Positions 32,481-63,890 of a stretch of 64,000 bases of DNA are shown in pieces; position 1 is the first letter of the stretch, and each line of letters begins with the position of its first letter. Location: positions 30 through 64,029 of the forward strand of contig JALSGO010000083.1 in assembly GCA_026982655.1 (NCBI GenBank), in the 5' to 3' direction. The notes beneath the pieces were generated by a model that had not been told where the DNA came from, made no database searches, and saw nothing but the letters and a program-made list of their open reading frames with translations. The DNA is from Candidatus Bipolaricaulota bacterium (GTDB lineage Bacteria; Bipolaricaulota; Bipolaricaulia; RBG-16-55-9). The position numbers and the translations under genes were made by a program.

Positions 32481-32500
32481 CCCACCCCACCGGGGGTGGG
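32481..32500. promoter_or_regulatory. CsoR-type operator 1: CCCACCCC-ACCG-GGGGTGGG
   Basis: Perfect 8-N4-8 palindrome 13 nt downstream of the -10 box. It is one of four copies in the window, and csoR lies in the operon. Confidence 0.7.
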
Positions 32501-35923: not shown

Positions 35924-36238
35924 ATGACCGAAGAACTACTGGTGTTGTTACAGCAGGGGAGCCTGGCGGCCCACCCGGAGGCGAAGCGCCACGCCCAGCG
36001 GCTCGTCCGCACCGTCATCGGCCACACCCAGGGCATCGAGCGGATGATCGAGGAAGAGCGATACTGCATCGACATCTTAAAGCAGATCGCCGCGGTGCAG
36101 GGGCTGCTGACCAAGCTGGCCCACACCGTAAGCGAAGCCCACATGAAACACTGCGTGCGACTGGCCATCGAGGAGGGCCACGGCGAGGAGGCCGTTGAAG
36201 AACTGATGGAGACGCTGAAATACCTGCGGAGCGTATAG
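35924..36238 (+). CDS. csoR: CsoR-family copper-sensing transcriptional repressor
   Basis: 104 aa DUF156 pattern: RLVRTVIGHTQGIERMIEEERYCIDILKQIAAVQGLL...HMKHC, containing the C-H-C Cu(I) ligand set. Confidence 0.88.
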   Translation: MTEELLVLLQQGSLAAHPEAKRHAQRLVRTVIGHTQGIERMIEEERYCIDILKQIAAVQGLLTKLAHTVSEAHMKHCVRLAIEEGHGEEAVEELMETLKYLRSV

Positions 36239-38663: not shown

Positions 38664-38722
38664 GCGGCCTGCTCTGCCGGACGAAGCCATTCGGAAGCGA
38701 GAGGAAGGGAGGAAAGGAACTC

Positions 38723-39373
38723 ATGAACCCGCAGGAACGATGGAACGATGCTCTGACGCCGGAGAAGGAACCGACCGAGGGAGCTCTCTCGACGCCGCCC
38801 CCGGACGGCGCGTCCGAGGGGACCGGAGAGGGGCGGTCCCCTAAGGGGCGAACCGTGGGGATCGCCCTGATCCTCGCCGTGGTCGTGGGGATCGGCATCG
38901 GGTACTCGCTGTATTCCTTGCGGGCCGAGAGGGTGTCCGGGCTGGCGTCCACGGGGAGGGAGGTAGACCGGGGCCTCGGCGGCGGCATGCCGGCGATCGT
39001 GGTGGCCCCGCTGCTTAGGGATCTCGGGGAGGTGAGCGTCCAAGGGGGGACGGTGACCACCTTCTTCACCGTGCGCAATCCCGGGGACGGGGTGCTGGTC
39101 ATCACCGACATGGAGACTTCCTGTATGTGCACGGAGGTCGCTTTGATCGTGGACGGCGTGGAAGGCCCTCGACTCGGGATGCGCGGCCACGGTCCGCGGC
39201 CCGAGTGGTCGGCCCGGCTGAACCCGGGCGAGGAGGCGACCCTTAAGGTCTACTACGACCCCACGGTACACGAGGAGCTACGCGGACCGGTCACCCGCGT
39301 GGTGCGGGTTCACACGAACGTCCCCACCCGTCCCTACGTGGACATCTTGATCGATCTGGTGCAAACGGACTGA
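38723..39373 (+). CDS. DUF1573-domain protein (TM-anchored), copy a
   Basis: N-terminal anchor followed by LGEVSVQGGTVTTFFTVRNPGDGVLVITDMETSCMCT, which matches the DUF1573 SCGCT signature region. Confidence 0.7.
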   Translation: MNPQERWNDALTPEKEPTEGALSTPPPDGASEGTGEGRSPKGRTVGIALILAVVVGIGIGYSLYSLRAERVSGLASTGREVDRGLGGGMPAIVVAPLLRDLGEVSVQGGTVTTFFTVRNPGDGVLVITDMETSCMCTEVALIVDGVEGPRLGMRGHGPRPEWSARLNPGEEATLKVYYDPTVHEELRGPVTRVVRVHTNVPTRPYVDILIDLVQTD

Positions 39374-39424
39374 CTCCCGTGGGCAGACCGAAGGCTACAC
39401 GACAATCGGGGAGGGAATGCCAAG

Positions 39425-40000
39425 GTGATGAACGGGGAATCGAGGGACAAGGACCAAGGTCAGAATACGGAGATGCACGCGATCCGCCGCCGGGCGGCCT
39501 TCTTGAGCCGAGGCGGAGTGAGCCTGCCCCTCCTGATCATCGGGGTCCTCCTGGCCCTGGGGACGACTGCGGGCCTGGGGTATTTGCGTCTGGCGGGCCC
39601 ACCGGCGGCAGGCCCTCCGCGCATCGAGGTCACGCCGGAGCTCATCGAGTTCGGAGAGATCTCCCCCACCGAGAAGGCGGTCGTGGAGTACCGTGTGCGA
39701 AACGCCGGGGGAAGCCCGTTGGAGATCACCCGCGTGAGCACCTCGTGTGGGTGCACCACCGCCGAGGTCGGCAAGACGACGCTCCTCCCCGGCGAGACGA
39801 CTCCGTTGCGCGTCACCTTCGACCCCCAAGCGATGCGGGCCGAAGGGCTCAACGAGGAGGACATCTACCGGATCATCTTCCTAAGGAGCAACGACCCCGA
39901 GCGGCCGGAGGTTACCGTCGAGCTTCGCGGTCGCGTCCTGCCGTCGGACTCGGACTCGAACTCGAACTCGGAGCCGGAGTCTGCCGTCGAGGGGAGGTAA
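39425..40000 (+). CDS. DUF1573-domain protein (TM-anchored), copy b
   Basis: FGEISPTEKAVVEYRVRNAGGSPLEITRVSTSCGCTTA, with a Ser/Asp/Asn-rich tail. GGGGAGGGA RBS. Confidence 0.75.
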   Translation: MMNGESRDKDQGQNTEMHAIRRRAAFLSRGGVSLPLLIIGVLLALGTTAGLGYLRLAGPPAAGPPRIEVTPELIEFGEISPTEKAVVEYRVRNAGGSPLEITRVSTSCGCTTAEVGKTTLLPGETTPLRVTFDPQAMRAEGLNEEDIYRIIFLRSNDPERPEVTVELRGRVLPSDSDSNSNSEPESAVEGR

Positions 40001-45329: not shown

Positions 45330-45374
45330 ACATGACGCAGATCATTGATCCCACCCCACGGGGGGTGGGATAAT
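45330..45374 (+). promoter_or_regulatory. 45-nt promoter/operator module, copy 1: ATGAC-N4-ATCAT, TTGATC(-35), CsoR-type operator 2 (45350..45369) and GATAAT(-10)
   Basis: CCCACCCC-ACGG-GGGGTGGG fills the 18-nt spacer. The module is colinear with 48290..48334. Confidence 0.65.
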
Positions 45375-47103: not shown

Positions 47104-48309
47104 ATGAGCCGACGGGGGTACGAAGGAGTTTCGGTCGTGGGGGCCGGACCGGCGGGGCTTGTGGCGGCCCTCACGCTGGCCCGCGCAGGCGTCCCCGTCA
47201 CCGTCTACGAGAAGGGGCCGACGGTGGGCACCCGCTTCCACGGCGACTTTCAAGGCTTAGAGAACTGGTCCCGCGAGCTCGACGTCTTGGAGGATCTCCG
47301 GACGATGGGGCTTGCGATCAACTTCGCCGTGCAACCGCGCGACTCAGCGGACTTCTACGACGCCTGGGACCGGAAGTACGACATCAGGACCCGAGAGCCC
47401 CTCTTCTATCTGGTGCGCCGCGGGGGTGGGGAGGGGAGCCTCGACCGCGGGCTCTACGCCCAGGCCCGGGAGGCCGGGGTGCGGTTCCGTTTCCACACCA
47501 AGCTCGATCGGGTGGAGGGCCCGGCGATCGTGGCCACCGGCCCGCGCTACGCCGACGGCATCTGCGTGGGCTACCTCTTCGAGACGGACCTAGAAGACCT
47601 TACGGCCTGCATCCTCTCCCAGCGCCTGGCCCCCCGCGGCTACAGCTACCTCCTGGTGGCCGACGGTCGGGCGACGCTGGTGAGCTGCCACTTCGCCGAC
47701 CTCCCCCGCTGGCGGGATCATCTGGAGGCCACCGTCGAGGCCTTCCGAAAGCTTTACCGCTTTGAGATGCGGAACCCCCGCTTCTTCTCCGGCTACGGGA
47801 ACCTCTTCGCCCGGGGGCGCTTCCGCGACGGCCAAAAACTCTACGTGGGCGAGGCCGCCGGGCTCCAGGACGGCCTGTGGGGCTTCGGGATGCGCTTTGC
47901 CCTGCGCTCGGGATATCTGGCGGCCCAGAGCCTGCTCTCCGGCCAAGACTACGACGAGCTGGTCCGAAGGGAGCTTCTGCCGCACCACCGGGCGGGGCTG
48001 GTCAACCGCTTTTTCTGGAACCTCTTGAGCGATCGCATGTTGGCGTTCTTCCTGCGGCGGGCGGCGCGCTGGACCGACCTTCGGGGGCGGCTGCGCGAGC
48101 TCGCCGGGCCCCGTCCCTGGAAGGATCGGCTCTATCCCTTCATCCGGGGAGCCTGCGGCTGGCGGGCCCGCTACCGCGACGAGCGCTGCCTCCGGGAGGG
48201 GTGTCCCTGCATCGGGTGCGCGTGTCGGAGTCCTTCGCGTACGATCTCGAGCCCCTGCGTCTCTTGGGGAGCGGCTCGGTTCCGACTCGACATGACGCAA
48301 GTCATTTGA
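47104..48309 (+). CDS. FAD-dependent oxidoreductase (geranylgeranyl-reductase-like) with Cys-rich C-terminal tail
   Basis: VSVVGAGPAGLVAALTLARAG dinucleotide motif and the tail CLREGCPCIGCAC. GAGAGGAAGGAG RBS. Confidence 0.8.
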   Translation: MSRRGYEGVSVVGAGPAGLVAALTLARAGVPVTVYEKGPTVGTRFHGDFQGLENWSRELDVLEDLRTMGLAINFAVQPRDSADFYDAWDRKYDIRTREPLFYLVRRGGGEGSLDRGLYAQAREAGVRFRFHTKLDRVEGPAIVATGPRYADGICVGYLFETDLEDLTACILSQRLAPRGYSYLLVADGRATLVSCHFADLPRWRDHLEATVEAFRKLYRFEMRNPRFFSGYGNLFARGRFRDGQKLYVGEAAGLQDGLWGFGMRFALRSGYLAAQSLLSGQDYDELVRRELLPHHRAGLVNRFFWNLLSDRMLAFFLRRAARWTDLRGRLRELAGPRPWKDRLYPFIRGACGWRARYRDERCLREGCPCIGCACRSPSRTISSPCVSWGAARFRLDMTQVI

Positions 48310-48334
48310 CCCACCCCCTCTGGGGTGGAATAAT
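48290..48334 (+). promoter_or_regulatory. 45-nt promoter/operator module, copy 2: ATGAC-GCAA-GTCAT, TTGACC(-35), CsoR-type operator 3 (48310..48329) and AATAAT(-10)
   Basis: CCCACCCC-CTCT-GGGGTGGA occupies the -35/-10 spacer region. The -35 overlaps the stop codon of the FAD oxidoreductase gene. Confidence 0.65.
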
Positions 48335-52553: not shown

Positions 52554-52582
52554 TTGACAACCCTCCCCGGATGGGGTACAGT
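52554..52582 (+). promoter_or_regulatory. promoter TTGACA-17-TACAGT heading the MMPL2 string
   Basis: Consensus -35 at 52554..52559 and -10 at 52577..52582. Confidence 0.55.
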
Positions 52583-52592
52583 GAGACCATAT

Positions 52593-52612
52593 CCCACCCC
52601 AGGTGGGGTGGA
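52593..52612. promoter_or_regulatory. CsoR-type operator 4: CCCACCCC-AGGT-GGGGTGGA
   Basis: Same 8-N4-8 palindrome, 11 nt downstream of the -10 box and 7 nt upstream of the MMPL2 start region. Confidence 0.65.
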
Positions 52613-52618
52613 TAAGGG

Positions 52619-55573
52619 GTGAAGCGAATGGCCCGAGGGCCGGACTTCCTGATACGTTGGCGCGTGCCGCTGCTGGTCGCCGTCCTGGTGGCCACCGCGC
52701 TCTTGGGCGCGGCGGTCATGGGAGCCAAGCTCAACGCCGACTTCTCCACGTATCTTTCCCAAGACAGCCCGCTCGTCCGGGAGTTCAACCGCGTCGGCGA
52801 GGTCTTCAAGGCCAACTACGTCGGCATGGTCCTCGTCCGGACCGAGGATCTGTTCACCCCCGAGAACCTCAGGCTGCTGGATCGCCTGACCCGAGCGTAT
52901 AAGTCCATCGAGGGCGTCGACTCGGTGACCAGCCTCACCAACGCCGTCGACTTCCGGCGGGCCGACGGCGGCCTGGTTGTGGGAAAACTCCTCGAGGGCA
53001 AGCCCCTCCCGACGGCGCCCGAGGAGCTGGAGAGGTTCAAGCGCTACGTGCTCTCCAAGGAGATGTACGTCGGCGCGTTGGTCAACGCCAAGGGCACCAC
53101 CGCCGTGATCCTGGTGCGCCTGCTTCCCAAGGTGAATCACTTCAAGGTCGCCGGGCAGATCGACCAAGTCACCCAGGAGATCGCGCCCAATGCAGAAAAC
53201 ATCTACTACGGCGGGATGCCCTTCCTCATCTACTCCATGACCGGGCTCATCCTCGACAACCTCTTCTTCCTGGTGCCGCTGATCATCCTGTTGCTCGTGG
53301 GGGTGCTGGAGCTGGGTTTCCGCCGCCTGGGCGGGGTGCTCGCCCCCCTGACCGTGGTGCTGCTCGCCGTGGTCTGGACGATGGGGATCCTGGCGCTCCT
53401 GGGCCGCCCGATCGACCTTCTGACCGGGATCGTCCCCATCATCCTCATCGCGATGGGCTCGGCGGACGGGATCCACTTCATGCGGCGCTTCTACGAGGCG
53501 CGGGCCGCCGGAGCCGAGCGCCGCGAGGCCGTGAAAATCACAATGAGGGAGATGGGCACGCCGATCGTCTTTACGTCCATCACGACCATGATCGGGTTCG
53601 CCTCGCTGGCCATCTCGAACTTCGACATCATCCGGACGTTCGGCTGGGCCACCGCGCTGGGGATCTTCCTGGCGCTGGTCGTCACCCTGATCGTGCTCCC
53701 CGCCGGACTGTCCTTTGGCCGGGAGCGGGCCTCCGTGCCTGCCGAGACGGACAACAGCGGGAGGCCGCGCAGCGTCCGGGGAGGGAGCCGGGCGATGGCC
53801 GCCCTGGGCGGGGGGATCCACCGGCGTCCGGGCGCGATCGCGCTCCTGACGGTGGGGGTGATCGCGCTGGCCGCGGTGGGGATCCCCCGCATCGTGGTGA
53901 ACGTGGACTGGTCGCTCTGTCTGGCACGGGGCAGCAAGCCGTACTTGGCGGAGATGCTGCTGCGCCGGGAGTTCGGCGGCTCCCTGCCCCTGCTCGTGTC
54001 CGTGAAGGGCGACGTCAAGGACCCGGCGACGCTGGAGACGATGCGGGCCGTGGAGCGCCACCTCGACGCGCTGCCCGAGGTGAGCGAGGCCGAGTCGATA
54101 GCGTCGGTGCTGGCGGAGATGAACTGGACGCTCAACGGGCGCTTCGCCGTGCCCACCGAGCGGGCTCAAGTCAACAACTTGTGGTTCCTGCTCCAGGGAC
54201 AAGACGTGCTCGATCAGATGGTCCGCTCGGACAACCAAGAGGCGCTGGTGCAGGCGAAGGTGGCCTCGCTGGGCACGGCGGTGATCAGCCGGGTGGTCGA
54301 GGACGTGAACGCCTTCTTGAGCCGCCTGCCCCAGAAGTTGGTCGTCGTGGACGCCGCCCAAGCGCCCCCGGATGCTCAACAGGCGCTGAGGGAACTCCAA
54401 GCTCAGCAAGTGAAAGAGGCTCTGGCTCAAGACCTGCGGGCCAAAGGCCTTTCGGTTGAACCCGCGGCGCTCGAAGCTGTTGTTGAGGCAGCGCAGAGCT
54501 GGACCCCCGGCGAACCCGACTACGCGGCGCTCGGCGAAGCCATTGAGAAATATTTGCTGAGCCCCGAGTCCGAGGTGCCGTTCGACGACCCTGCACAGGC
54601 CGCGACGATAGCCGAGTCGATCACCACAGCGCTCAGCGAGCGAGGCGGACGGCCATTGAGTGTCTCTGAGTTAGAAGCGTTGCTGCGCCCCCAGGTCGAG
54701 ACGTCCTACCCCGAGGACGTGGCCTGGCTGGCAGAGGCGTTAGTTTATCGCGTCGATGAGTTTTTAGATGCCCGTCGCGTGGAGGCGGCTTACGCGCAGC
54801 TGGCCGCCCAGCTGCCCCCGGAGGCGCGCTCCAACACGGATCTTGCGAAGAAGCTGCGCGGCGACCTTTGGGGGCTGACGACTGCGACGCTGGCGCTCGG
54901 TCCCCAGCAGTACGAGTCCCTGCAGGCCCAATATGGTCTGGACCTCGCGCGGACGGTGACCCTGGCCGCCGAGCCCTCGGGCCTAGCCCCGGTGCTGGAT
55001 CAGATGGAGAAGGAGCTGCTCCCCACCCAGATCGAGAGCACGGCGCTGGCCTTGTTGGCCGTGACGCTCTTGCTGATTTTGGTGTTCCGCTCGCTGCGGG
55101 CGGGGCTTTTGGGGATCGTCCCCGTGGGCCTGACCATTCTGGTCAATTTCGCAGTGTTAGGCTACTTCGGCATCGGCCTGGACTCGTTCACCGCGATGAT
55201 CGCCAGCATCACCATCGGCCTGGGGATCGACTACGCGATCCACTTCACCCACCGCTTCCGGAAGGAGTTCGAGCGCTCCGGCGACGAGCGGACGGCCCTC
55301 ATCACCACGTTGCAGACGACGGGCGTGGCGATCCTCATCAATTCGTTTTCGGTGGGCGCGGGGTTCGCCGTGCTGCTCTTGGCCGGCGGCCAGCACATCC
55401 GGCTCTTGGGAGGCCTTACGGCAATAGCGCTCCTGGTGAGCGCGCTCTTCACCCTGGTCGTGCTCCCGGCGCTCACGCTCTTGTGGAAGCCGCGCTACTT
55501 TCAGACCCCCGTCGTCGTGGAGCCGAAGCTGCGCCCTGAGCCCGAAGCCGAGAGGGGAGTTCAAAGCGCGTGA
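52619..55573 (+). CDS. MMPL/RND-superfamily exporter 2 (984 aa, with a large extra helical insert in the second loop)
   Basis: Two TM bundles with GSADGIHFMRRFYE and GLGIDYAIHFTHRFRKE. GTG 52619 or ATG 52628 is the start. Confidence 0.85.
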   Translation: MKRMARGPDFLIRWRVPLLVAVLVATALLGAAVMGAKLNADFSTYLSQDSPLVREFNRVGEVFKANYVGMVLVRTEDLFTPENLRLLDRLTRAYKSIEGVDSVTSLTNAVDFRRADGGLVVGKLLEGKPLPTAPEELERFKRYVLSKEMYVGALVNAKGTTAVILVRLLPKVNHFKVAGQIDQVTQEIAPNAENIYYGGMPFLIYSMTGLILDNLFFLVPLIILLLVGVLELGFRRLGGVLAPLTVVLLAVVWTMGILALLGRPIDLLTGIVPIILIAMGSADGIHFMRRFYEARAAGAERREAVKITMREMGTPIVFTSITTMIGFASLAISNFDIIRTFGWATALGIFLALVVTLIVLPAGLSFGRERASVPAETDNSGRPRSVRGGSRAMAALGGGIHRRPGAIALLTVGVIALAAVGIPRIVVNVDWSLCLARGSKPYLAEMLLRREFGGSLPLLVSVKGDVKDPATLETMRAVERHLDALPEVSEAESIASVLAEMNWTLNGRFAVPTERAQVNNLWFLLQGQDVLDQMVRSDNQEALVQAKVASLGTAVISRVVEDVNAFLSRLPQKLVVVDAAQAPPDAQQALRELQAQQVKEALAQDLRAKGLSVEPAALEAVVEAAQSWTPGEPDYAALGEAIEKYLLSPESEVPFDDPAQAATIAESITTALSERGGRPLSVSELEALLRPQVETSYPEDVAWLAEALVYRVDEFLDARRVEAAYAQLAAQLPPEARSNTDLAKKLRGDLWGLTTATLALGPQQYESLQAQYGLDLARTVTLAAEPSGLAPVLDQMEKELLPTQIESTALALLAVTLLLILVFRSLRAGLLGIVPVGLTILVNFAVLGYFGIGLDSFTAMIASITIGLGIDYAIHFTHRFRKEFERSGDERTALITTLQTTGVAILINSFSVGAGFAVLLLAGGQHIRLLGGLTAIALLVSALFTLVVLPALTLLWKPRYFQTPVVVEPKLRPEPEAERGVQSA

Positions 55574-55624
55574 GGAATTTCGTCGGGGAGAGAATATCCC
55601 GTACAATAACAGGAGGTTGTTCCC

Positions 55625-56407
55625 ATGAAGCGTAGTGGAAGTAGAACGAGAACGGTGATCCTCGGACTGACGGTGACGTTGCTCCTGGCGGTCGGCGCTT
55701 GGGCGATCACGGGCGACGAGGTGCTGCAGAGGTCTCAAGAGGCGATGCGGCCCGGCCAGGACGCGACGATCACGGAACGGATGACGATCGCCAAGCCCGA
55801 CGGCCAGACGGACGTGCTGGAGCTCAAGATGTACATGAAGGGGGAGAAGACGCTGATCCGCGTCCTCGCCCCGGAGGACTTCGCGGGCATTGGGCTGTTG
55901 ATCCTGCCCCAGGAGGACGGCGGCGAGGAGATCTGGCTCTATCTTCCGGCCTTCCGGGACGTGAAGCAGATCGTGGCCGAATCCTTGAGCGAGGGCTTCG
56001 TCGGCTCGGACTTCGCCTACGAAGATCTCACGGTGCGCTACACCTCCAAGTGGGACGTGACCTCCATGAGCGAGGAGGAAGGGCAATACGTCCTGACGCT
56101 GGCTCCCAAGCCCGAGGCCCAGCTCAGTTACAGCGGGGCGCGCATGTGGGTGGACCAGGAGACGTTCCTGCCCACGCGGGCGGAGTTCGACCGGGAGGGA
56201 GAGCTGCTCAAGGTGCTGACCCTCTCGGAAGTGCAGGACTTCCCCAGCGTCGCGGACCCCGAGACGAGCTACCCCACCCCGACGCGGATCGAGATGGCCA
56301 ACGTGAAGACGGGGAGCCGGACCCTCATCGAGCTTTTGGAGGTCGAGTACGACACCGGGCTCTCGGACGACTTCTTCACCGTACGCAACCTCAAGCGGGG
56401 CGAATAA
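55625..56407 (+). CDS. LolA-like outer-membrane lipoprotein-sorting-type protein 1
   Basis: Signal peptide and motifs IWLYLPAFRDVKQI and GSDFAYEDL, typical of LolA-like partners of MMPL exporters. Confidence 0.7.
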   Translation: MKRSGSRTRTVILGLTVTLLLAVGAWAITGDEVLQRSQEAMRPGQDATITERMTIAKPDGQTDVLELKMYMKGEKTLIRVLAPEDFAGIGLLILPQEDGGEEIWLYLPAFRDVKQIVAESLSEGFVGSDFAYEDLTVRYTSKWDVTSMSEEEGQYVLTLAPKPEAQLSYSGARMWVDQETFLPTRAEFDREGELLKVLTLSEVQDFPSVADPETSYPTPTRIEMANVKTGSRTLIELLEVEYDTGLSDDFFTVRNLKRGE

Positions 56408-56460
56408 GACTGGACTGAGCTAAGATAGCCGTACACAAGCCGTAAAGGGAGAGGAGGGGG

Positions 56461-57798
56461 ATGGGAATGGCGCAAGCGACGGCGACGGCAGATCGCACGG
56501 AAGCCCAAGTGCGAGCGGTTTTAGACCGCCTGCTCGAGGCCATCCGCCCGAGGGAGTTCGCCGTGCGACTCTGGAACGGGGAGGTCATCGAGCCCGACCC
56601 CGGCCATCCGGCCCGCTTTACGCTCGTACTTAACCACCCGGGCGCGCTGGGGCGGATGCTCTGGCCGCCCTCGGACCTCACGATAGGAGAAGCCTACATC
56701 CGGGGGGACTTCGACGTCGAAGGAGATCTCATCGCCGCCTTCTCGCTGCGGGAGCACTTCACCCGCCCGCCGTTCCGCCTTACGGAGATGCTGCGCATGG
56801 TCCGCGTCCTGCGCCGAGCGGCCCGGACGGCCCCTCCCCTCCAGCCCGATCGAGGGCCCGCGCGCCTGCGCGGGGCGCGCCACTCCAAGGAGCGGGATCG
56901 GGCCGCCGTCCGCTACCACTACGACGTGGGCAACGACTTCTACGCCCTGTGGCTCGACCGCAACATGGTCTACTCCTGCGCGTATTTTGAGACGGGCACC
57001 GAAGATATTGACACAGCCCAGGAAGCCAAACTGGACTACATCTGCCGCAAGCTGCGCCTTCAGCCGGGAGAACGGCTGTTGGACATCGGCTGCGGCTGGG
57101 GCGGACTCCTGATGCACGCGGCCCAGCACTACGGCGTCGAGGCCGTCGGCATCACGCTAAGCCCCCCGCAAGCCGAATGGGCCCGGGAGCGCATCCGCGA
57201 GCGGGGGCTCGCCGACCGCTGCCGGGTGGAGGTCGCCGACTATCGCGACTTCGACGAGGGCCCCTTTGACAAGCTGGTGAGCGTCGGGATGTTCGAGCAC
57301 GTGGGCGCGAAGATGCTCCCCGTCTACTTCCAAAAGGCCTGGTCGCTGCTTAAGCCCGGCGGGGTTTTTCTCAATCATGGGATTACGCTGGGCCCGGGCC
57401 CGCGCGACGAGCCGAGCTGGTGGGGACGCACGCTCTTTAAGCAGGGGCTGTTCATCCAGCGATACGTCTTCCCCGACGGCGAGCTGGAGCCGATCCACGA
57501 GTCGCTCCAGGCCGCCGGTGAGGTGGGCTTTGAACTTAGGGATGTGGAGTCGCTGCGCGAGCACTACGCGCTCACCCTGCGCCGCTGGGTCCAGCGCCTG
57601 GAGGCCCGCCACGACGAGGCCGTCCGCGCCGCGGGCGAGGCCGTTTATCGCATCTGGCGACTGTTCATGGCCGGATCGGCGTATCACTTCGAGATCGGGA
57701 GGCTCAACGTCTACCAGGCGCTCTTCGTCAAGCCCGATCGCGGGCGGAGCGGTTTGCCTCTGACCCGAGCCGACTGGTATGCTCGCCCTAGTTCCTAG
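56461..57798 (+). CDS. cfa: cyclopropane-fatty-acyl-phospholipid synthase family methyltransferase
   Basis: HYDVGNDFYALWLDRNMVYSCAYF, LLDIGCGWGGL and VSVGMFEHVG motifs. Confidence 0.9.
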   Translation: MGMAQATATADRTEAQVRAVLDRLLEAIRPREFAVRLWNGEVIEPDPGHPARFTLVLNHPGALGRMLWPPSDLTIGEAYIRGDFDVEGDLIAAFSLREHFTRPPFRLTEMLRMVRVLRRAARTAPPLQPDRGPARLRGARHSKERDRAAVRYHYDVGNDFYALWLDRNMVYSCAYFETGTEDIDTAQEAKLDYICRKLRLQPGERLLDIGCGWGGLLMHAAQHYGVEAVGITLSPPQAEWARERIRERGLADRCRVEVADYRDFDEGPFDKLVSVGMFEHVGAKMLPVYFQKAWSLLKPGGVFLNHGITLGPGPRDEPSWWGRTLFKQGLFIQRYVFPDGELEPIHESLQAAGEVGFELRDVESLREHYALTLRRWVQRLEARHDEAVRAAGEAVYRIWRLFMAGSAYHFEIGRLNVYQALFVKPDRGRSGLPLTRADWYARPSS

Positions 57799-57815
57799 GG
57801 AAAGGGGGTGATACG

Positions 57816-58022
57816 ATGAACGAGTCGTTCACCGATCCCGTCTGCGGGATGACGATCGATAAGAGCCAAGTCGCCGCGACCCTCGAGTACGGAGGGAAAA
57901 CGTACTACTTCTGCTCCCCCGGCTGCAAGGTCGCCTTCGAGCGCGAGCCCGAGAGGTATGCCGAGTCGGAGTCCAAGCCGGAGTCCTCGGAGGGGAGCGC
58001 TCCCGGGTCGTCCTCTCCTTGA
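57816..58022 (+). CDS. stand-alone YHS/TRASH-domain metal-binding protein
   Basis: DPVCGMTIDKSQ...YYFCSPGCKVAFEREPERY, followed by a Ser/Glu/Pro tail. Confidence 0.8.
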   Translation: MNESFTDPVCGMTIDKSQVAATLEYGGKTYYFCSPGCKVAFEREPERYAESESKPESSEGSAPGSSSP

Positions 58023-58060
58023 AGTTCACCCCTTGGATAAACGAGGGAGCGCGAAAGCCT

Positions 58061-58106
58061 CCCGGACCGGCGGGGACCGAGGGACATCCCTCCCCGCCGG
58101 TCCGGG
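58061..58106 (+). other. perfect 16-bp GC-rich stem-loop (CCCGGACCGGCGGGGA-N14-TCCCCGCCGGTCCGGG)
   Basis: Read directly. It lies in the 166-nt gap between the YHS gene and MMPL3. The loop contains its own GGGA-ca-TCCC mini-stem, and there is no U-tail. Confidence 0.85.
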
Positions 58107-58188
58107 GCCGAGGACGGACCCCGCCCTCTCCACAAGATCTCCACAGCTCTTTCACCGGGACTTCACACCCCCTCCCTAAGGTGTCCTC

Positions 58189-60585
58189 ATGTCGACGCGA
58201 TCGCTCAAGGAGGAGAATCCCTCGATCATGTACAAGAAATACGTGGAATGGGTGCTGAACCGCCCCAAACTCGTGCTCGCGCTGATCGCGCTGGTGACCC
58301 TGGGGTTCGCCGCGGGGCTCCCGCGCATCCAGACGGACACCGACCCCGAGAACATGCTCCGTCCCGACGCCCCCATCCGCGTCTACAACGACCAGGTCAA
58401 AGCTTGGTTCGACCTCCAAGACGTGCTCGTCTTAGGGATCGTCAACGACCAAGACCCCAACGGGGTCTTGAACGCCCAAACGCTGGGGAAGATCTACCGC
58501 ATCACCCAAGAGATCCTCAAGATCGAGGGCGTCGTCCGCCGCAACGTCTGGAGTTTTCCGACGACCAACCACATCCGGGTGCGGGGAGGCACCCTCGTCC
58601 AAGAGCGTTTGCTCAAGACCGATCGGCCCACGGATGCCGACATCGCCGCGCTCGCCCAGGCCCTCGACGGAAACCCCCTCTTCGAGCGCATTCTCATCTC
58701 GGACGACCGCACGTTGGCCGCCCTCTACATCCCCGTGGAGGACGACGTGGACGCGAAACCCATCACGGATCGCATTCAGGAGATCGTCCAAGCCGAGGGC
58801 GGGCCGGAGGAGTATTACCTCGGCGGACAGCGCGTCGCCGAGGACGTCTTCGGGGTGCTGATGTTCCAACAGATGCTGCTGCTCTCGCCCTTGGTGGCCC
58901 TCGTCATCTGGGTGGGCTTGTGGCTCATGTTTCGAAGGCTGCGCTTTGCGTTTGTCTTCTCCCCCTTGTTGATCGCCTTGGTCTCGGTGATCTGGACGAT
59001 GGGGCTCATGATCTGGCTCGGGATCCCCGTCCACATCATGAGCTCCATGGCCCCCGTGTTTCTGATGAGCATCGGCGTGGTCGACGGGATCCACATCCTC
59101 AGTGAGTTCGTCGATCAGTACCCTAAGAGCCGCAACCGCCGCCGAGCGATCCTCGACACCCTGGTGGCCCTCAAGCGGCCCCTGCTCTACACCTCGCTGA
59201 CCACCGCCGTCGGCTTTGCGTCTTTGTACTTCACGGACATCCCGCCCGTTAGGGTCTTCGGGGTGTTCGTGGCCTTCGGGATCCTGGCCGCCTGGGTGCT
59301 TACGATCACCATGGTCCCGGCGATCGTGATGGTCCTGCGCGAGCAGGATGCCAAGGAGCTCGCTGCCAAGGAGAACCGCCTGGCCCGCGGGCTCCAAGCC
59401 CTGGGACGCTTCAGCATCCGGCGCCGCCGGGCCGTGCTCGTCGGGGGCCTCCTCGCTTTGGCCGTCGCGGGCTTCGGGCTGACTCAAATTCACATCGACG
59501 ACAGCCCCGTCTGGTGGTTCAAGAAGGGCCAGCCCATCCGCGAGGCCACCGCTTTATTGAACGAGAAGCTGGGAGGGACTTCGCTCCTGTATGTCGTGCT
59601 CGAGGGGGAGAAGGGCACGATGAAAGAACCCGAGGTGCTGCGGTACCTCGAGGAACTCCAGCGGTATCTGGAAGAATCCCCGTTGGTGGGCAAGACGACC
59701 TCGCTGGCCGACGTCGTCAAACGCATCAACGAGGCCTGGAACGACGACGATCCTCGGTATCGCGTGATCCCCGACTCCCGCAGGGCCGTAGCTCAGTTCC
59801 TGCTGCTGTACCTCTCCTCGGGGGACCCCAGCGATCTACAAGACTTCGTGACCCATGGCACGGGCTACGACAAGGCCAACGTCATCGTACAGGTGAAGAG
59901 CCCCGGTTCGGCGGCCATGGAGCGGGTCGTAGCACGGGCGCAAGCCTTCGTAGAGGGGAATCCGCCGCCCCGGGGGGTGCGGGTGAGCTTCGCCGGGCCG
60001 GGGTACTTCAATGCGAAGTGGAACGAGGAGATGTTCCGCGGGATGATGCGCGCCGTGGCCGGGGCCACCCTCGTCGTGTGGTTGCTGCTGTCGCTCAACT
60101 TCCGCTCGATGCGTTGGGGGATCGTGGGGCTGCTCCCCTTAGGGTTTACGATCGTGTTCACCTACGGGATGCTGGCTTTGCTGGGGGTGCCCTTCACCAT
60201 GCCCATCGAGGTGATCTCGGCCCTCTCGCTGGGGATGGCCGTGGACTTCGCCATCCACTTCGTCCAACGCTTCCGCGAGCGCTACGCCGAGACTCAAGAC
60301 GTAGAGGGCTCCTTGAGGTGGACCATGGGCGGGCCCGGCGTGGCCATTTTGCGCAACGCCGTCATCCTGTTTGTGGGCTTTACGGTGCTGATCTTCGCGC
60401 CGCTTACGCCGTATATCACCGTGGGGGTCTTTATCGCGATCATCATGGCCCTAAGCTCGCTGACCACGCTCTTCTTCTTGCCCGCGCTCATACGGCAGTT
60501 TGCCCCCTGGCTGGTGGACCGGCCCGCGCGGGCGGCCGTCCCCGCGGCCGCTGAAGTGGAAGCGGAAGTGGAACCGAAAGCCTAA
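58189..60585 (+). CDS. MMPL/RND-superfamily exporter 3
   Basis: Two TM bundles with GVVDGIHILSEFVDQY and GMAVDFAIHFVQRFRE. Confidence 0.85.
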   Translation: MSTRSLKEENPSIMYKKYVEWVLNRPKLVLALIALVTLGFAAGLPRIQTDTDPENMLRPDAPIRVYNDQVKAWFDLQDVLVLGIVNDQDPNGVLNAQTLGKIYRITQEILKIEGVVRRNVWSFPTTNHIRVRGGTLVQERLLKTDRPTDADIAALAQALDGNPLFERILISDDRTLAALYIPVEDDVDAKPITDRIQEIVQAEGGPEEYYLGGQRVAEDVFGVLMFQQMLLLSPLVALVIWVGLWLMFRRLRFAFVFSPLLIALVSVIWTMGLMIWLGIPVHIMSSMAPVFLMSIGVVDGIHILSEFVDQYPKSRNRRRAILDTLVALKRPLLYTSLTTAVGFASLYFTDIPPVRVFGVFVAFGILAAWVLTITMVPAIVMVLREQDAKELAAKENRLARGLQALGRFSIRRRRAVLVGGLLALAVAGFGLTQIHIDDSPVWWFKKGQPIREATALLNEKLGGTSLLYVVLEGEKGTMKEPEVLRYLEELQRYLEESPLVGKTTSLADVVKRINEAWNDDDPRYRVIPDSRRAVAQFLLLYLSSGDPSDLQDFVTHGTGYDKANVIVQVKSPGSAAMERVVARAQAFVEGNPPPRGVRVSFAGPGYFNAKWNEEMFRGMMRAVAGATLVVWLLLSLNFRSMRWGIVGLLPLGFTIVFTYGMLALLGVPFTMPIEVISALSLGMAVDFAIHFVQRFRERYAETQDVEGSLRWTMGGPGVAILRNAVILFVGFTVLIFAPLTPYITVGVFIAIIMALSSLTTLFFLPALIRQFAPWLVDRPARAAVPAAAEVEAEVEPKA

Positions 60586-60625
60586 TGGAGAGATTTTACA
60601 GAACCCCATAGGAGGTTGACCGACC

Positions 60626-61486
60626 ATGAGGCAGAGCACAAGCAACAGACTCCTCACGACCGGACGGACGTTGGGGCTCCTGGCCCTGGGGCTGCTCCTC
60701 ACGCTGGGGGCCTTCCCCGTGGTCCTCACGCAGGCCCAAGCGCAAGGTCCCTCGGCGGAGGAGATCATGCAACAGGCGAAGGACCGCTGGCAGGGCGAGG
60801 ATTTCACGTCGGCCGTGCGGCTTACGACCGCGGAGCCCGGCGGCGGGGAGACCGTCCTCGACGTCGACTTCAAGGCCAAGCTCATCGAGGAGAGCCGGGA
60901 CTCGGGTGCGTTCCGCTACAAGGTGTTGGCCCGCGTCACGGCCCCGGAGGACGTAGCGGGCTGGGCGGTCCTCATCTGGGAGCAGGAGTTCCCCACCCCG
61001 GACGACATCTGGCTCTACCTGCCGGCGCTCGAGTCCACGAAGAAGATCTCGCTGGAGAACTTCCGTAACCCGCTCTTTGGAAGCGAGTTCGTGTTCGAGG
61101 ACGTCATCGGGCGCGAGCCGGGGCTCGACACCCACGAACTCCTGCGGGAGGAGACCCTCAACGTCGGCGGCGAGGACCGCCCCGTCTGGGTGATTAAGAG
61201 CACGCCTCAGGACCCCGATCTGGCGGGCTTCGCCTACCGCATCACCTACGTGGACCGGGAGACGCTCTTGGAGCTCCGCATGGAGCTCTACAACGACACC
61301 GACGCGTTGATCAAGCTCTACCAAGCCGAGGAGGTGCGAGAGCTGCAGGGCATCCCCACGTGGGTTACGGCGACGGCGGAGAACCTCGAGACGGGTCGAG
61401 TCACCACCTTCGAGTTCCTCGAGCCGGTCTACAACACGGGCGTTCCGGACGAGATCTTCGACCCGGAGCGGTTGGGGCAGCCGTAA
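60626..61486 (+). CDS. LolA-like outer-membrane lipoprotein-sorting-type protein 2
   Basis: Signal peptide and motifs IWLYLPALESTKKI and GSEFVFEDV, paralogous to 55625..56407. Confidence 0.7.
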   Translation: MRQSTSNRLLTTGRTLGLLALGLLLTLGAFPVVLTQAQAQGPSAEEIMQQAKDRWQGEDFTSAVRLTTAEPGGGETVLDVDFKAKLIEESRDSGAFRYKVLARVTAPEDVAGWAVLIWEQEFPTPDDIWLYLPALESTKKISLENFRNPLFGSEFVFEDVIGREPGLDTHELLREETLNVGGEDRPVWVIKSTPQDPDLAGFAYRITYVDRETLLELRMELYNDTDALIKLYQAEEVRELQGIPTWVTATAENLETGRVTTFEFLEPVYNTGVPDEIFDPERLGQP

Positions 61487-61502: not shown

Positions 61503-61580
<78 letters not shown>

Positions 61581-61681: not shown

Positions 61682-63124
61682 ATGAATGAGAAGACGTGGA
61701 TGATCGTGATGGTCGTGCTCGCGCTGGCCCTGGGACTGTGGTGGCTCTCCACACCGAAAGGCCCCCGGATGGAGATGGGGCAGAGAGCGGCCCCTGCGGC
61801 CGAGGAGGCCGTAGCCGGGGCTCAAGGGGGGCTGAACCGCCTGGCGTTCGTCGACCCGAGGACGGGCAGTCGGTTCACGGTCGAGGTCGGCCCGGCCACC
61901 CACGGCGTAGGCGTCCTGCCGGACGGCTCGAAGGCGTACGCCACCAGCTTCGGCGCCGACGAGATCTCCGTAGTCGATTTGGCCCAGAAGAAGACGGTCA
62001 AGACGATCTCCATCGGGGCCAAGTCCCACCATGTCGAGATCAGTCCCGACGGGCGTTGGGCCTACATCACCGCCGCGGACGACACCGTGGCCGTGATCGA
62101 CACCCGCACCGACACCCTGGCCGCGAAGATCGCCGTCCCGCCCGGCCCGATGTACGCCGTCTTCTCGCCCGACGGGCGCTTCGCGTACGTCACCAGCATG
62201 AAGGGCGGCGTGGTGAGCGTCCTCGACGTCGAAGCCCAGCAAGTCGTCCGGGAGATCCCCGTCGGGAAGGGGCCGGATCACGCGGCGCTCACCCCCGACG
62301 GGCGCTTCCTCTACGTCGCAAACCGCAACGACGGGACCGTGAGCGTCATTGACACCCAGCAGGGGAGCGTTATAGCGACGATCCCCGTGGGGAAGGGACC
62401 TCATGGGGTGGCCGTCGTCGAACGCGGTGGGAAACTGCTCGTCTTTGTGGGCAACCGCGGCGAGACGACGATCTCCATCATCGATCCCACGACGAACGCA
62501 GTCCTCGAGACGTTCGATCTGGGGGTAAGCCCCGAGCACCTCACGCCCTCCTTCGACCGCAAGACGCTCTACATCGGGAGCATCCCCGCGAAGCAGCTCT
62601 TCGTCTACGACGTCGAGCGCGGGGAGATCGTGCAGCGCTTCGACGTCGAAGGGGAGATCCACCAGATCGTCGTCGTGCCCCCACGCCAACAGGCCCGCAT
62701 GCCCATGCCGAGGATGCCCATGGAGCCTGAGCAAGAGAAGGGGAAAGAGATGGGCATGCCTATGGAAGTCGAGTACGAGCTCGTCGAGGTCGAGGGCGGC
62801 AGCTACCGAAATATCGACGCCCCCACCCTCTGGGCGATGCTCCAACAGAAGGACTTTCTGCTGATCAACGTCCACATCCCCTACGCGGGCGAGCTGCCCG
62901 AGACGGACTTGTTCATCCCCTTCAACGCCATTGAAGAAAACCTCGACAAGCTCCCGGAAGACAAGGACACGAAGATCGTGGTCTACTGCCGCAGCGGGCC
63001 GATGAGCGCGAAGGCCGCCGCGACGCTGGTGAAGCTGGGCTACACGAACGTCTGGAACTTAGAGCAGGGGATGCGCGAGTGGCAGGCGGCGGGGTTCCCA
63101 CTCTTGACGAACAAGGCGGAGTAG
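61682..63124 (+). CDS. YVTN-type beta-propeller / Met-rich linker / rhodanese fusion protein (membrane-anchored)
   Basis: N-terminal TM helix, then repeated PDG..(A/L)Y(V/I)...(D/G)TVSVID blades. Linker is RMPMPRMPMEPEQEKGKEMGMPME. The C-terminal rhodanese carries the active-site loop VVYCRSGPMS. Confidence 0.8.
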   Translation: MNEKTWMIVMVVLALALGLWWLSTPKGPRMEMGQRAAPAAEEAVAGAQGGLNRLAFVDPRTGSRFTVEVGPATHGVGVLPDGSKAYATSFGADEISVVDLAQKKTVKTISIGAKSHHVEISPDGRWAYITAADDTVAVIDTRTDTLAAKIAVPPGPMYAVFSPDGRFAYVTSMKGGVVSVLDVEAQQVVREIPVGKGPDHAALTPDGRFLYVANRNDGTVSVIDTQQGSVIATIPVGKGPHGVAVVERGGKLLVFVGNRGETTISIIDPTTNAVLETFDLGVSPEHLTPSFDRKTLYIGSIPAKQLFVYDVERGEIVQRFDVEGEIHQIVVVPPRQQARMPMPRMPMEPEQEKGKEMGMPMEVEYELVEVEGGSYRNIDAPTLWAMLQQKDFLLINVHIPYAGELPETDLFIPFNAIEENLDKLPEDKDTKIVVYCRSGPMSAKAAATLVKLGYTNVWNLEQGMREWQAAGFPLLTNKAE

Positions 63125-63131
63125 GTGCCCC

Positions 63132-63886
63132 ATGGTCTTAGACCCATCCGAGCCCAACCCGGCGCAAAAGGCGATGCCCTCGAAGGCCTTCCCCATAGAT
63201 CCGGAAGCGACGGGGGTCACGCGGGCGCGCTACGACCGCGTGGCCCCCGTCTATGACCTCTACGAAGGCCTGATGGAAGGGCTCTTCTTCCGCTCGTGGC
63301 GGCGGCTCGTCTGGGGCGCCGTCCAAGAGCACCTGGAGCACCTGCAGCAAATCGCAGCCGCCACGAGCGCAGCGAAGCCCCGCTTGCTGGAGGTCGGCGT
63401 GGGCACGGGCAAGAACCTGCCCTACTACCCCGGAGGCGTCGAAGCCCTAGCCATCGACCTCAGCGAGAAGATGCTGGAGCGCGCCCGGAAGCGGGCTCTC
63501 AAGCTGGGAAAGCCCGTAGATTTGCTCCCGATGGACGCCCAGGCCCTCGCCTTCCCCGACGAGTCCTTCGACGTCGTGGTGGCCACGTTCGTGTTCTGCT
63601 CTGTGCCCGATCCCGTCCTAGGGCTCCGCGAAGTCAACCGGGTATTGAAGCCCCACGGACAGGTGGTTTTGCTGGAGCACATGCGTCCGCGCTCCGAGCG
63701 CTTGGGGAAACTCTTCGATCTCTTCAATCCCCTCGCCGTGAGGCTGACCGGGGCGAACATCAACCGCCGTACGGTCGAAAACGTCCGCAAGGCGGGCCTC
63801 GAACTTGAGAGCGTAAGGGAGCTCTCGGCCCAAGGAATCGTAAAGCTTATCGTAGCCCGAAGGGGCTCACCCGAAGGAGGTCAGCC

Positions 63887-63890
<4 letters not shown>
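63132..63890 (+). CDS. class I SAM-dependent methyltransferase (Methyltransf_11/UbiE-like)
   Basis: LLEVGVGTGKNL motif I and FDVVVATFVFCSVPD motif. Confidence 0.8.

Follow-up and report, generated by a model that had tools for sequence, protein, structure and literature searches.

The 64-kb stretch of Candidatus Bipolaricaulota DNA analysed here (hereafter the window, a metagenome contig with 66.6% GC over its whole length) contains a cluster of genes encoding two exporters of the MMPL type of RND proteins, MMPL2 and MMPL3, each followed by a gene for a secreted protein with a LolA-like fold. In our view the best explanation of the cluster, to which we give a probability of about one half, is that nucleotides (nt) 52554-58105 form a CsoR-repressed operon for a copper-stress exporter, consisting of MMPL2 and LolA-like 1 and acting on a lipid-like cargo, together with cfa and a gene for a small YHS protein. 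The second pair (pair 2), comprising MMPL3 and LolA-like 2, is a module of a different subfamily and is considered separately below. All eight open reading frames (ORFs) named in the initial annotation are present on the plus strand with unchanged coordinates and have the high GC content at third codon positions that is typical of real genes, and the ORF check and Pfam searches confirmed the order and identities of the genes from MMPL2 to LolA-like 2. The features of the first unit are:

52554-52582, plus strand: sigma-70-like promoter of the MMPL2 operon, TTGACA, 17 nt, TACAGT (consensus scan)
52593-52611, plus strand: CsoR-type operator 4, CCCACCCCAGGTGGGGTGG, with 0 mismatches to its own pattern, starting 10 nt after the -10 hexamer
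52628-55573, plus strand: MMPL2, long-form HAE3/MMPL-type RND exporter of 981 amino acids (aa) (PF03176, 7e-37)
54392-54901, plus strand: all-helical insert in extracytoplasmic loop 2 of MMPL2, aa 589-758 (alignment A1; AlphaFold2 model)
55625-56407, plus strand: LolA-like 1, secreted LolA-fold partner of MMPL2 (PF17131, 2.5e-47)
56461-57798, plus strand: cfa, CMAS-family lipid methyltransferase dependent on S-adenosylmethionine (SAM) (PF02353 CMAS, 1.6e-95)
57816-58022, plus strand: small cytoplasmic YHS/TRASH protein, putatively copper-binding (PF04945, 4e-19; cysteine motif visible)

Translation of MMPL2 is likelier to start at ATG 52628 (981 aa), which has an AAGGGG ribosome-binding site 8 nt upstream, than at GTG 52619 (984 aa), and the same ATG was chosen by gene callers on two other contigs carrying an identical locus (981-aa product). 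A consensus scan of the region from 45 to 64 kb returned only three sigma-70-like promoters, all of which coincide with CsoR-type operators. The operator previously proposed ahead of MMPL2 is indeed present (52593-52611) and represents one of four copies of the palindrome CCCACCCC-N3-GGGGTGG, located at 32481, 45350, 48310 and 52593, with a weak fifth copy at 40046; 0.09 matches are expected from shuffled sequences and the observed count was reached in none of 100 shuffles. Operator 4 with its flanks reads ATATCCCACCCCAGGTGGGGTGGATAAG, and its core is nearly identical to the M. tuberculosis CsoR (cso) operator, GTAGCCCACCCCCAGTGGGGTGGGATAC (PMC10601412). The remaining operators, CsoR itself and the exporter gene adjacent to csoR are located as follows:

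32481-32499, plus strand: CsoR-type operator 1, downstream of TTGACA-17-TATCGT and ahead of Rieske-copA1-csoR-MMPL1
35924-36238, plus strand: CsoR, between copA1 and MMPL1 (PF02583, 6e-24)
36246-38663, plus strand: MMPL1, third distant HAE3/MMPL paralogue, in the copA1-csoR operon (PF03176, 3.5e-34)
45350-45368, plus strand: CsoR-type operator 2, inside a promoter spacer, ahead of cytochrome b, an unknown gene and an FAD oxidoreductase
48310-48328, plus strand: CsoR-type operator 3, inside a promoter spacer, ahead of a cupredoxin, an SfLAP-like gene, an HMA gene and a cytochrome b

In operators 2 and 3 the whole spacer from the -35 to the -10 hexamer is taken up by the palindrome; its start lies 10-15 nt past the -10 hexamer in the case of operators 1 and 4. 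As is characteristic of the CsoR family, these operators are GC-rich and pseudo-palindromic and overlap the promoters of copper genes. The CsoR of the window contains a C48/H73/C77 triad with the same 25- and 4-residue spacing as C36/H61/C65 of the M. tuberculosis protein, and is presumably a Cu(I)-type repressor that binds the four operators. The predicted copper control of the unit starting at 52554 is well supported at the level of sequence because promoter and operator are combined with the Cu(I) triad and with a setting in a copper island. A second, degenerate CsoR-like box in the MMPL2 promoter spacer (52560-52578, ACCCTCCCCGGATGGGGTA) is unconserved in locus L009 (see below), and we do not claim it as an operator. 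The motif ACATGACGCA(GA/AG)TCATT is shared between 45330-45346 and 48290-48306, immediately upstream of operators 2 and 3 and overlapping the -35 region (2 copies, 0.02 expected), and may be the binding site of another regulator.

The regulatory arrangement recurs in L009 (L numbers denote the loci fetched for comparison), which encodes an MMPL2 orthologue with 80% identity. This gene is preceded by TTGACA-17-TAGACT and then by ATATCCCACCCCACCTGGGATGGG, and a second promoter with a CsoR-type operator is located ahead of YHS-cfa. The order of genes in this locus is MMPL2, LolA-like 1, csoR, YHS, propeller-rhodanese and methyltransferase, with MMPL3 and LolA-like 2 absent. Since a promoter-operator is kept at both positions, copper control of the pump and of cfa appears to be conserved despite the changed gene order. 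The operator search across the fetched loci relied on a crude, fuzzy regular expression, and the matches that were meaningful, which were then read by eye, came from L009 only. In L005, where the MMPL2 gene follows beta-CASP and HAD genes, no operator was found directly ahead of it.

The association of MMPL2 with copper genes extends well beyond these two loci. Via an alignment of the subfamily we fetched 80 loci from species-representative genomes, 20 of which carry true MMPL2-type genes, and a parallel census covered 80 metagenome loci of the MMPL3 type (among L093-L174), MMPL3-type genes being far commoner. Genes were counted by tblastn of the loci with the island proteins of the window, which undercounts small or divergent genes; CopA, YHS, cupredoxin, CsoR and HMA genes within the flanks were scored as copper genes. 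These are present in 11/20 MMPL2-type loci, as opposed to 0/60 other HAE3 loci (p = 1.6e-8) and 5/80 MMPL3-type loci (p = 3e-6), and of the nine MMPL2-type loci lacking copper genes, four are contigs of less than 5 kb. The reverse is observed for sulfur-transfer genes (2/20 MMPL2-type, 37/80 MMPL3-type; p = 0.004) and for ArsR-type regulators (0/20 and 39/80, respectively; p = 1.5e-5). Shared ancestry is not taken into account in these statistics, and most control loci are archaeal or derive from another collection, but the contrast is large and is seen in both directions. Independent copper-linked examples are found in Firmicutes, Ignavibacteria, Chlorobiota, Deferribacteres, Spirochaetota, Gemmatimonadota and the cultured Fodinibius. 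For example, hand inspection of a Firmicutes metagenome-assembled genome (MAG) revealed CopA and, further on, MMPL, LolA-like, barrel-like and CsoR genes, and that of L003 revealed MMPL, LolA-like, DUF1302, CopA, cupredoxin and YHS. The cultured Fodinibius sp. AD559 has the order rhodanese, YHS, CopA, propeller, AraC, MMPL, LolA-like, DUF1302, and the cassette adjoins copA in cultured Balneolales (Fodinibius, Aliifodinibius, Gracilimonas). Copper control of an MMPL/LolA-like exporter outside the CusCBA type is well founded because the operator layout is conserved and the association with copper genes spans many phyla.

An orthologue of LolA-like 1 is present in 18/20 MMPL2-type loci, immediately 3' of the pump in the hit maps. 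Outside the Bipolaricaulia the LolA-like gene is followed in most orthologous loci by a third gene, encoding a DUF1302-like outer-membrane barrel of 410-460 aa. The initial annotation had stressed that neither a membrane-fusion protein nor a TolC-like gene accompanies the exporters, and we found no membrane-fusion (HlyD) or TolC-like (OEP) domain among the genes scanned across the window, nor any homologue of the DUF1302-like barrel in the whole window (tblastn, best E = 0.49). That statement holds for the window but not for the orthologous cassettes elsewhere, which almost always carry the barrel. For this reason the ancestral system is likely to have been a trans-envelope exporter, an architecture that fits efflux as well as it fits lipid delivery. 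The cfa gene, which had been placed at the core of the proposed programme, does not hold that position, as it occurs in 4/20 MMPL2-type and in 0/80 MMPL3-type loci; it is a lineage-specific companion and not a conserved part of the cassette. Several other lipid-modifying genes (PEMT/ICMT, patatin and a PmtA-like methyltransferase) recur near the cassette besides cfa, and YHS genes are located directly upstream of MMPL2-type genes in L011, L013 and L014. Propeller or rhodanese genes recur near both types of cassette, with a propeller gene in L091.

MMPL1, MMPL2 and MMPL3 share only 28-29% identity with each other (alignment A1). Each matches PF03176 in two stretches (118.7, 127.5 and 140.9 bits, respectively, cut-off 20.5), and PF12349 and PF02460 match them too. 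TIGR00921 (HAE3) is the best NCBIfam match for all three, although the scores of 265.8, 247.7 and 248.6 bits lie below the cut-off of 351.9; judged by these profiles the three proteins are HAE3-like yet fall outside the curated model. The HpnN models are not reached either (TIGR03480, 106-139 bits, cut-off 752; NF052374, 49-92 bits, cut-off 1100). The CusA/CzcA model TIGR00914 scores only 24-25 bits against MMPL1 and MMPL3 (cut-off 701) and is not among the NCBIfam matches of MMPL2 at E <= 0.001. The putative proton-relay residues D280/H283 in transmembrane helix (TM) 4 and D868/H872 in TM10 are invariant in the three paralogues and in 24 members of the MMPL2 subfamily. An AlphaFold2 model of MMPL2 built from 24 members (mean predicted local distance difference test score, pLDDT, 87; predicted template modelling score, pTM, 0.81) has twelve transmembrane helices and two large extracytoplasmic loops, one following TM1 and the other TM7. 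Its best fold matches are the siderophore and drug exporters MmpL5 and MmpL4, followed by HpnN and MmpL3 (TM-scores of 0.6-0.76, normalised to the target), and a profile search against PDB sequences returned the same order, with CusA not in the top matches. The closest named relatives of both MMPL2 and MMPL3 are from Candidatus Bipolaricaulia MAGs. The MMPL2 subfamily is a widespread long form (950-990 aa, 40-48% identity) from at least nine phyla, including FCB-group bacteria, Calditrichota, Balneolales, Gemmatimonadota, Firmicutes and others.

The additional length of MMPL2 resides in a helical insert in the second extracytoplasmic loop, which had been located at about nt 54430-54950. Such an insert of some 170-180 residues is borne out by the structural model, in which residues ~581-770 are confident helices, and its bounds can be refined to nt 54392-54901 with the help of a natural deletion variant. 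It does distinguish MMPL2 from MMPL1 and MMPL3, as was originally pointed out, but it is a trait of the entire subfamily rather than a peculiarity of this gene, because the long form is common to this widespread group. The variant, P0004 (L005, 8873-11332), is a Bipolaricaulia relative with 72-82% identity in the aligned parts that lacks exactly aa 589-758; its locus contains no LolA-like gene, and the genes after the pump instead encode a DOMON protein and a cytochrome b. As P0004 lacks both the insert and a LolA-like neighbour, the insert may serve the LolA-like partner and is a candidate docking module for it. Met, His and Cys are all missing from the insert, and the MMPL2/LolA-like cassette shows no clusters rich in Met or His such as those of CusA, CusF or CopC. 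MMPL2 has a sole cysteine, C431, which is invariant in the subfamily. The soft ligands conserved in MMPL2 (C431, M443, M472, M793 and H923) are scattered; together with E794 and Q922 they are invariant in the subfamily and are located close to the periplasmic ends of TM7, TM8 and TM12.

LolA-like 1 and LolA-like 2 match PF17131 with 161.4 and 143.4 bits (cut-off 30) and have N-terminal hydrophobic signal peptides that contain no cysteine; that of LolA-like 1 is of the Sec type, and the lipobox cysteine is absent. The nearest solved structures are uncharacterised proteins of the LolA superfamily (3bk5, 9tp6, 4z48 and 3buu). The match to LolA3 is weak (19 bits, cut-off 83), which places these proteins outside genuine LolA and LolB, and their genes are partnered with an RND pump, in contrast to the linkage of LolA with the ABC transporter LolCDE. 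Orthologues of LolA-like 1 possess no conserved Cys or His, and direct metal handling by the insert or by LolA-like 1 is argued against because the former lacks Met, His and Cys and the latter lacks conserved Cys and His. Pump and LolA-like domain also occur as single-chain fusions, both of the MMPL2 type (P0033, P0072) and of the MMPL3 type (P0159, P0197, P0214). The order of domains in these fusions is opposite, with the LolA-like domain following the pump in the MMPL2 type (C-terminal) and preceding it in the MMPL3 type (N-terminal). The cfa product covers the full length of the CMAS model (PF02353, 320 bits, cut-off 27) and scores below the equivalog cut-offs (CfaB NF040703, 392 bits compared with 650; Cfa PRK11705, 250 compared with 400). 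It is probably a cyclopropane-fatty-acyl-phospholipid synthase, with cyclopropanation as such only presumed because enzymes that form methyl branches belong to the CMAS family too.

On this basis we propose the following sequence of events. A rise in cytoplasmic Cu(I) would cause CsoR to leave the operator just downstream of the -10 hexamer, allowing transcription of MMPL2, LolA-like 1, cfa and the YHS gene. MMPL2, driven by protons, would extract a hydrophobic or amphiphilic cargo from the cytoplasmic membrane and pass it to LolA-like 1, possibly via the 170-residue helical insert, and the LolA-like carrier would then take it across the periplasm to the outer (toga) membrane or, in other phyla, out through the barrel. 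In parallel, Cfa would methylenate unsaturated acyl chains. The Bipolaricaulia cassette would represent a barrel-less version of a system composed of RND pump, LolA-like carrier and DUF1302-like barrel, and the subfamily as a whole appears from its gene neighbourhoods to be a copper-stress module in many phyla. Our best guess for the cargo is a lipid-like component of the envelope, in which case copper would trigger a remodelling or protection of the envelope that complements CopA-type efflux. A cargo of this kind is favoured because of precedents in the family, because insert and carrier lack soft-metal ligands and because lipid-modifying genes accompany the cassette. We considered a monoderm host, in which delivery to an outer membrane would be precluded, and rejected this, as Bipolaricaulota have been reported to be diderm with a toga-like outer membrane.

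A number of points weigh against a lipid-like cargo and against parts of this scheme. Copper induction is something that we infer from the regulatory sequences, no lipid-biosynthesis pathway is conserved with the cassette, an envelope lipid being the cargo that we infer, and cfa accompanies only a fifth of the MMPL2-type loci (4/20). The docking role of the insert rests on one natural variant; moreover, MMPL3 has a LolA-like partner yet no such insert, and in Vulcanibacillus the insert is present with no LolA-like neighbour. The barrel found in most phyla and the analogy with the AmeABCD system (PMC6394551) would be at least as consistent with a toxic species being expelled as with the delivery of a lipid, and a component that handles copper would be expected to show just such a tight and subfamily-specific link to genes for CopA, YHS proteins and cupredoxins.

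These points lead to the alternative that the MMPL2/LolA-like(/barrel) cassette removes copper and is a functional analogue of CusCBA, expelling Cu(I), or copper in a hydrophobic complex (for example an adduct with thiolate, sulfide or lipid), from the membrane or periplasm to the exterior. This stays a strong rival because the association with copper genes is tight and specific to the subfamily, the ancestral architecture spans the envelope, and the only characterised analogue, AmeABCD, is an efflux/tolerance system. Also in its favour are the association with CsoR genes, the YHS genes found directly upstream of the pump in L011, L013 and L014, and C431 with the other subfamily-invariant residues listed above (M443, M472, M793/E794, Q922/H923), and there is a precedent in that loss of MmpS6/MmpL6 sensitises M. 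bovis to copper (PMC9048740). Against it, clusters of Met or His like those of CusA, CusF or CopC are lacking, as are Met, His and Cys in the insert and conserved Cys or His in LolA-like 1. The TIGR00914 model is absent from the MMPL2 matches and scores only ~24 bits for MMPL1 and MMPL3, CusA is not among the top PDB matches, and a LolA fold is suited to hydrophobic ligands. On balance we regard direct copper removal as rather unlikely, and retain the export of a lipid-like cargo as the preferred explanation.

Downstream of the YHS gene the cluster continues with a second module, made up of pair 2 and of two further genes beyond LolA-like 2:

58062-58105, plus strand: GC-rich hairpin with 15-bp arms and no U tract, between the YHS gene and MMPL3 (fold of 58040-58125)
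58126-58180, plus strand: conserved element of 55 nt upstream of MMPL3, CTCCACA..TCTCCACA..TTCACA (aligns with L095)
58189-60585, plus strand: MMPL3, short-form HAE3/MMPL exporter (PF03176, 6e-41)
60626-61486, plus strand: LolA-like 2, secreted LolA-fold partner of MMPL3 (PF17131, 8e-42; signal peptide visible)
61682-63124, plus strand: propeller-rhodanese, membrane-anchored extracytoplasmic YVTN/YncE-type beta-propeller plus rhodanese (Pfam, NCBIfam)
63132-63890, plus strand: SAM-dependent methyltransferase, starting 8 nt after the propeller-rhodanese gene (Pfam, NCBIfam; the weak best match is the phospholipid N-methyltransferase PmtA)

The MMPL3-type loci differ markedly from those of the MMPL2 type in their gene content. 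A LolA-like gene is present in 63/80 and a barrel in 53/80, while an ArsR-type regulator (39/80) is usually located directly upstream and sulfur-transfer genes are found in 37/80. The usual neighbours are ArsR/BigR-like regulators, DsrE, DsrE2, TusA and an SQR-like flavoprotein (e.g. L094, 4840-14561), and NCBIfam models identify the sulfur genes as DsrE2, TusC/DsrF-like and type III SQR-like. This suggests a role for the MMPL3/LolA-like/barrel subfamily in the handling or export of reactive or elemental sulfur. Genes of the ArsR, DsrE, TusA, SQR-like and YgaP kinds were sought throughout the window and not found, a rhodanese domain being the sole exception; its active-site cysteine is C436 of the propeller-rhodanese. 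MMPL3 itself contains an invariant Met/His-rich motif of its subfamily, HIMSSMxPVFLM (alignment A3), which is absent from MMPL2 and MMPL1. This motif lies in TM4 (aa ~279-302, nt ~59023-59094, with H282, M284, M287, M293, D299 and H302) and could be relevant to soft-metal or sulfur chemistry. The propeller-rhodanese contains a Met-rich linker, RMPMPRMPMEPEQEKGKEMGMPME (nt 62696-62767), in which 7 of 24 residues are Met and which has no counterpart elsewhere in the island. The linker resembles periplasmic Cu(I)-binding motifs; the orthologue in L009 (57% identical), which is also followed by the methyltransferase, has no such linker. Together the linker and the TM4 motif tie the pair-2 module back to copper, if only loosely.

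These features can be accommodated by a broader and more speculative view, in which HAE3/LolA-like/DUF1302-barrel cassettes are an as yet unrecognised group of exporters that carry hydrophobic, thiophilic inorganic species across the envelope, the MMPL2 type dealing with copper, the MMPL3 type with sulfur, and the propeller-rhodanese coupling the two. The MMPL2 subfamily would expel copper as a neutral complex of Cu(I) with sulfide or thiolate, or in lipid-bound form, and would replace CusCBA in many anaerobic or sediment lineages; the MMPL3 subfamily would expel sulfane sulfur produced in the membrane (polysulfanes or S8). In this genome, in which the two cassettes lie side by side, the periplasmic propeller-rhodanese with its Met-rich, Cu(I)-type linker would couple them. 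We consider this unlikely as a whole.

Yet another view, that of the initial annotation, takes the eight genes from MMPL2 to the methyltransferase as one copper-induced transcript, with both pairs serving a single, cfa-centred programme for envelope lipids. All of these genes are on the same strand with no canonical terminator bearing a U tract between them, a Gemmatimonadota genome (L019/L089) contains an MMPL2-type cassette, an MMPL3-type cassette and cfa together, and the propeller-rhodanese that follows pair 2 carries the Met-rich linker described above. The two pairs are nevertheless not duplicates within one programme, since the three MMPL proteins are only 28-29% identical and belong to different subfamilies, with opposite neighbourhoods as judged by copper genes (11/20 against 5/80), sulfur genes (2/20 against 37/80) and ArsR (0/20 against 39/80). 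The region 58040-58125, containing the hairpin, folds with -59.2 kcal/mol (z = -5.3), and none of 200 shuffles is as stable. An MMPL3 orthologue in L095 (90% identical) has the same upstream element as MMPL3 in a different upstream context, with no copper genes within 10 kb, and the element at 58126-58180 may be MMPL3's own regulatory region. L009, moreover, has MMPL2, LolA-like 1, csoR, YHS, propeller-rhodanese and methyltransferase, but no pair 2. The copper triggering originally proposed is supported for pair 1, cfa and the YHS gene, which stand behind a promoter and CsoR-type operator, whereas copper control of pair 2 is unproven because the hairpin, a gap of 166 nt and the conserved MMPL3-specific element separate the YHS gene from MMPL3. 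A promoter of its own may drive pair 2, whether or not read-through contributes, and a single transcript encompassing both pairs seems to us distinctly doubtful. A run of 39 consecutive G residues at 61504-61542 is located between LolA-like 2 and the propeller-rhodanese gene, at a position that in the 90%-identical relative L095 is occupied by a gene for a 68-aa YgaP-like membrane protein (~13322-13543). Two-colour-chemistry sequencing or assembly may have introduced the G residues as an artefact in place of such a gene.

It is very unlikely that MMPL2 and LolA-like 1 export a copper-binding metabolite, a chalkophore-like metallophore, in the manner in which MmpL4/5-MmpS4/5 export mycobactins. 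The best structural and sequence matches of MMPL2 are the siderophore exporters MmpL5 and MmpL4, which also have an insert in periplasmic domain 2, and an HAE3-type pump has been proposed as a siderophore exporter in Haloferax (PMC11349517), but identity to MmpL4 and MmpL5 is only 13-15%, and genes for non-ribosomal peptide synthetases (NRPS), polyketide synthases (PKS), ribosomally synthesised and post-translationally modified peptides (RiPP) or isonitriles were found beside the cassette in none of ~25 loci inspected. We also give very little credence to the idea that an ordinary envelope-maintenance exporter merely happens to sit in a copper island, since, although the window is a metagenome contig and the MMPL2-type loci L015, L019, L033, L034 and L090 show no copper genes, the dedicated promoter and operator are kept in L009 and the association recurs in many phyla in strong contrast to the two control sets.

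The exporter unit proposed here is the last of those headed by the four operators within a copper island of ~31 kb, which encodes two CopA ATPases (one with a YHS domain), two cupredoxins, an HMA protein, a Rieske protein, two cytochromes b and an FAD oxidoreductase. Units of a respiratory type of redox chemistry are also placed under CsoR-type operators here (32481-52541), with the Rieske protein, two cytochromes b, two cupredoxins and the FAD oxidoreductase, and genes for a beta-CASP RNase and an HAD hydrolase come after copA2-cupredoxin. Parts of this layout recur in L005, L009, L027 and L175. MMPL1, which starts 8 nt past the csoR stop codon as had been noted, is followed by two tandem DUF1573 (Ig-like) proteins (38660-40000) and not by a LolA-like gene; the DUF1573 proteins may be an alternative extracytoplasmic partner for it. 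The MMPL1-DUF1573 arrangement is kept in L175 (65% identity; 10863-11848), while copper genes are not nearby in L176, a relative of MMPL1 with 50% identity. Since the arrangement is shared by the relative with 65% identity and not by the one with 50%, MMPL1 seems to be linked to copper in a lineage-specific manner.

Bacterial copper defence is conventionally described in terms of CopA-type ATPases, multicopper oxidases, CusCBA and chaperones. If our proposal is correct, a copper-controlled cassette of RND pump and LolA-like protein (plus barrel) in at least nine phyla would add a new component to this defence at the level of the envelope, and would provide the first regulatory and physiological handle on the large and almost uncharacterised families of HAE3/LolA-like exporters. 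The sister subfamily linked to SQR, DsrE and TusA is a candidate answer to the question of how hydrophobic sulfur species leave the cell.

The control circuit most closely resembles the M. tuberculosis cso operon (csoR-ctpV), with which it shares the repressor family, the Cys-His-Cys triad, a near-identical GC-rich palindrome and a P-type ATPase under the same control. Neither an MMPL/LolA-like exporter nor cfa is a member of the known CsoR regulons in the literature that we searched. CusCFBA is similar as a copper-induced, RND-based envelope system that complements CopA; it differs in that its pump is of another RND family, and no membrane-fusion protein, TolC-like factor, CusF or evident methionine clusters are found here. 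The nearest precedent for a pump of the MMPL family with a copper phenotype is MmpS6/MmpL6 (TbD1 locus), loss of which sensitises M. bovis to copper under hypoxia (PMC9048740), but this belongs to the actinobacterial MmpL clade, has an MmpS partner and has not been reported to be operated by CsoR.

With respect to the pump itself, MmpL4/MmpL5-MmpS4/MmpS5 provide the best fold and profile matches of MMPL2 (9mvz_D, 1e-26; MmpL4, 1.5e-24), have a helical insert in periplasmic domain 2 and likewise need a small extracytoplasmic partner. Apart from the low identity, the partner here has a LolA and not an MmpS fold, the MMPL2 insert is predicted to form several short helices and not one long coiled coil, and AcpM or a siderophore context is absent; the proposed Haloferax siderophore exporter is a distant analogy only. 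HpnN is of the same RND subgroup (HAE3; fold match 5khn, E = 1.6e-19) and moves a membrane lipid, hopanoid, towards the outer membrane. The MMPL scores lie far under the cut-offs of the HpnN models and we saw no hopanoid genes, and HpnN requires no dedicated partner in the periplasm or the outer membrane (PMC6394551).

The cassette as a whole is most similar to AmeABCD of Castellaniella defragrans, an efflux/tolerance system that consists of an HAE3-type RND pump, a periplasmic protein of the LolA superfamily, a beta-propeller and a DUF1302 barrel (PMC6394551). Co-fit clusters of DUF1302, DUF1329, beta-propeller and COG1033 genes in Shewanella and Pseudomonas have been proposed to function in "export of a cell wall component" (10.1101/072470). 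An HAE3 pump, a protein of the LolA superfamily and a propeller gene are all present in the window, and the DUF1302-like barrel, of which there is none in the window, is carried by the orthologous MMPL2 and MMPL3 cassettes. The LolA-like proteins here are of the PF17131 type with ~260-290 aa, in contrast to the 450-aa DUF1329 protein of AmeABCD, and the propeller is of the YVTN/YncE/lactonase type fused to rhodanese, in contrast to COG4447/BNR. Regulation is predicted to be by CsoR and copper here and is by monoterpenes there, and MMPL2 has a 170-aa helical insert. In our full-text literature searches, no representative of the HAE3/LolA-like architecture was described as being controlled by CsoR or copper, and the split into a copper-linked and a sulfur-linked subfamily is apparently also undescribed, as far as we could find. 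The architecture itself is thus known, if poorly understood, from AmeABCD-like systems, and its copper-controlled version, as predicted from the operators and gene neighbourhoods, appears to be new.

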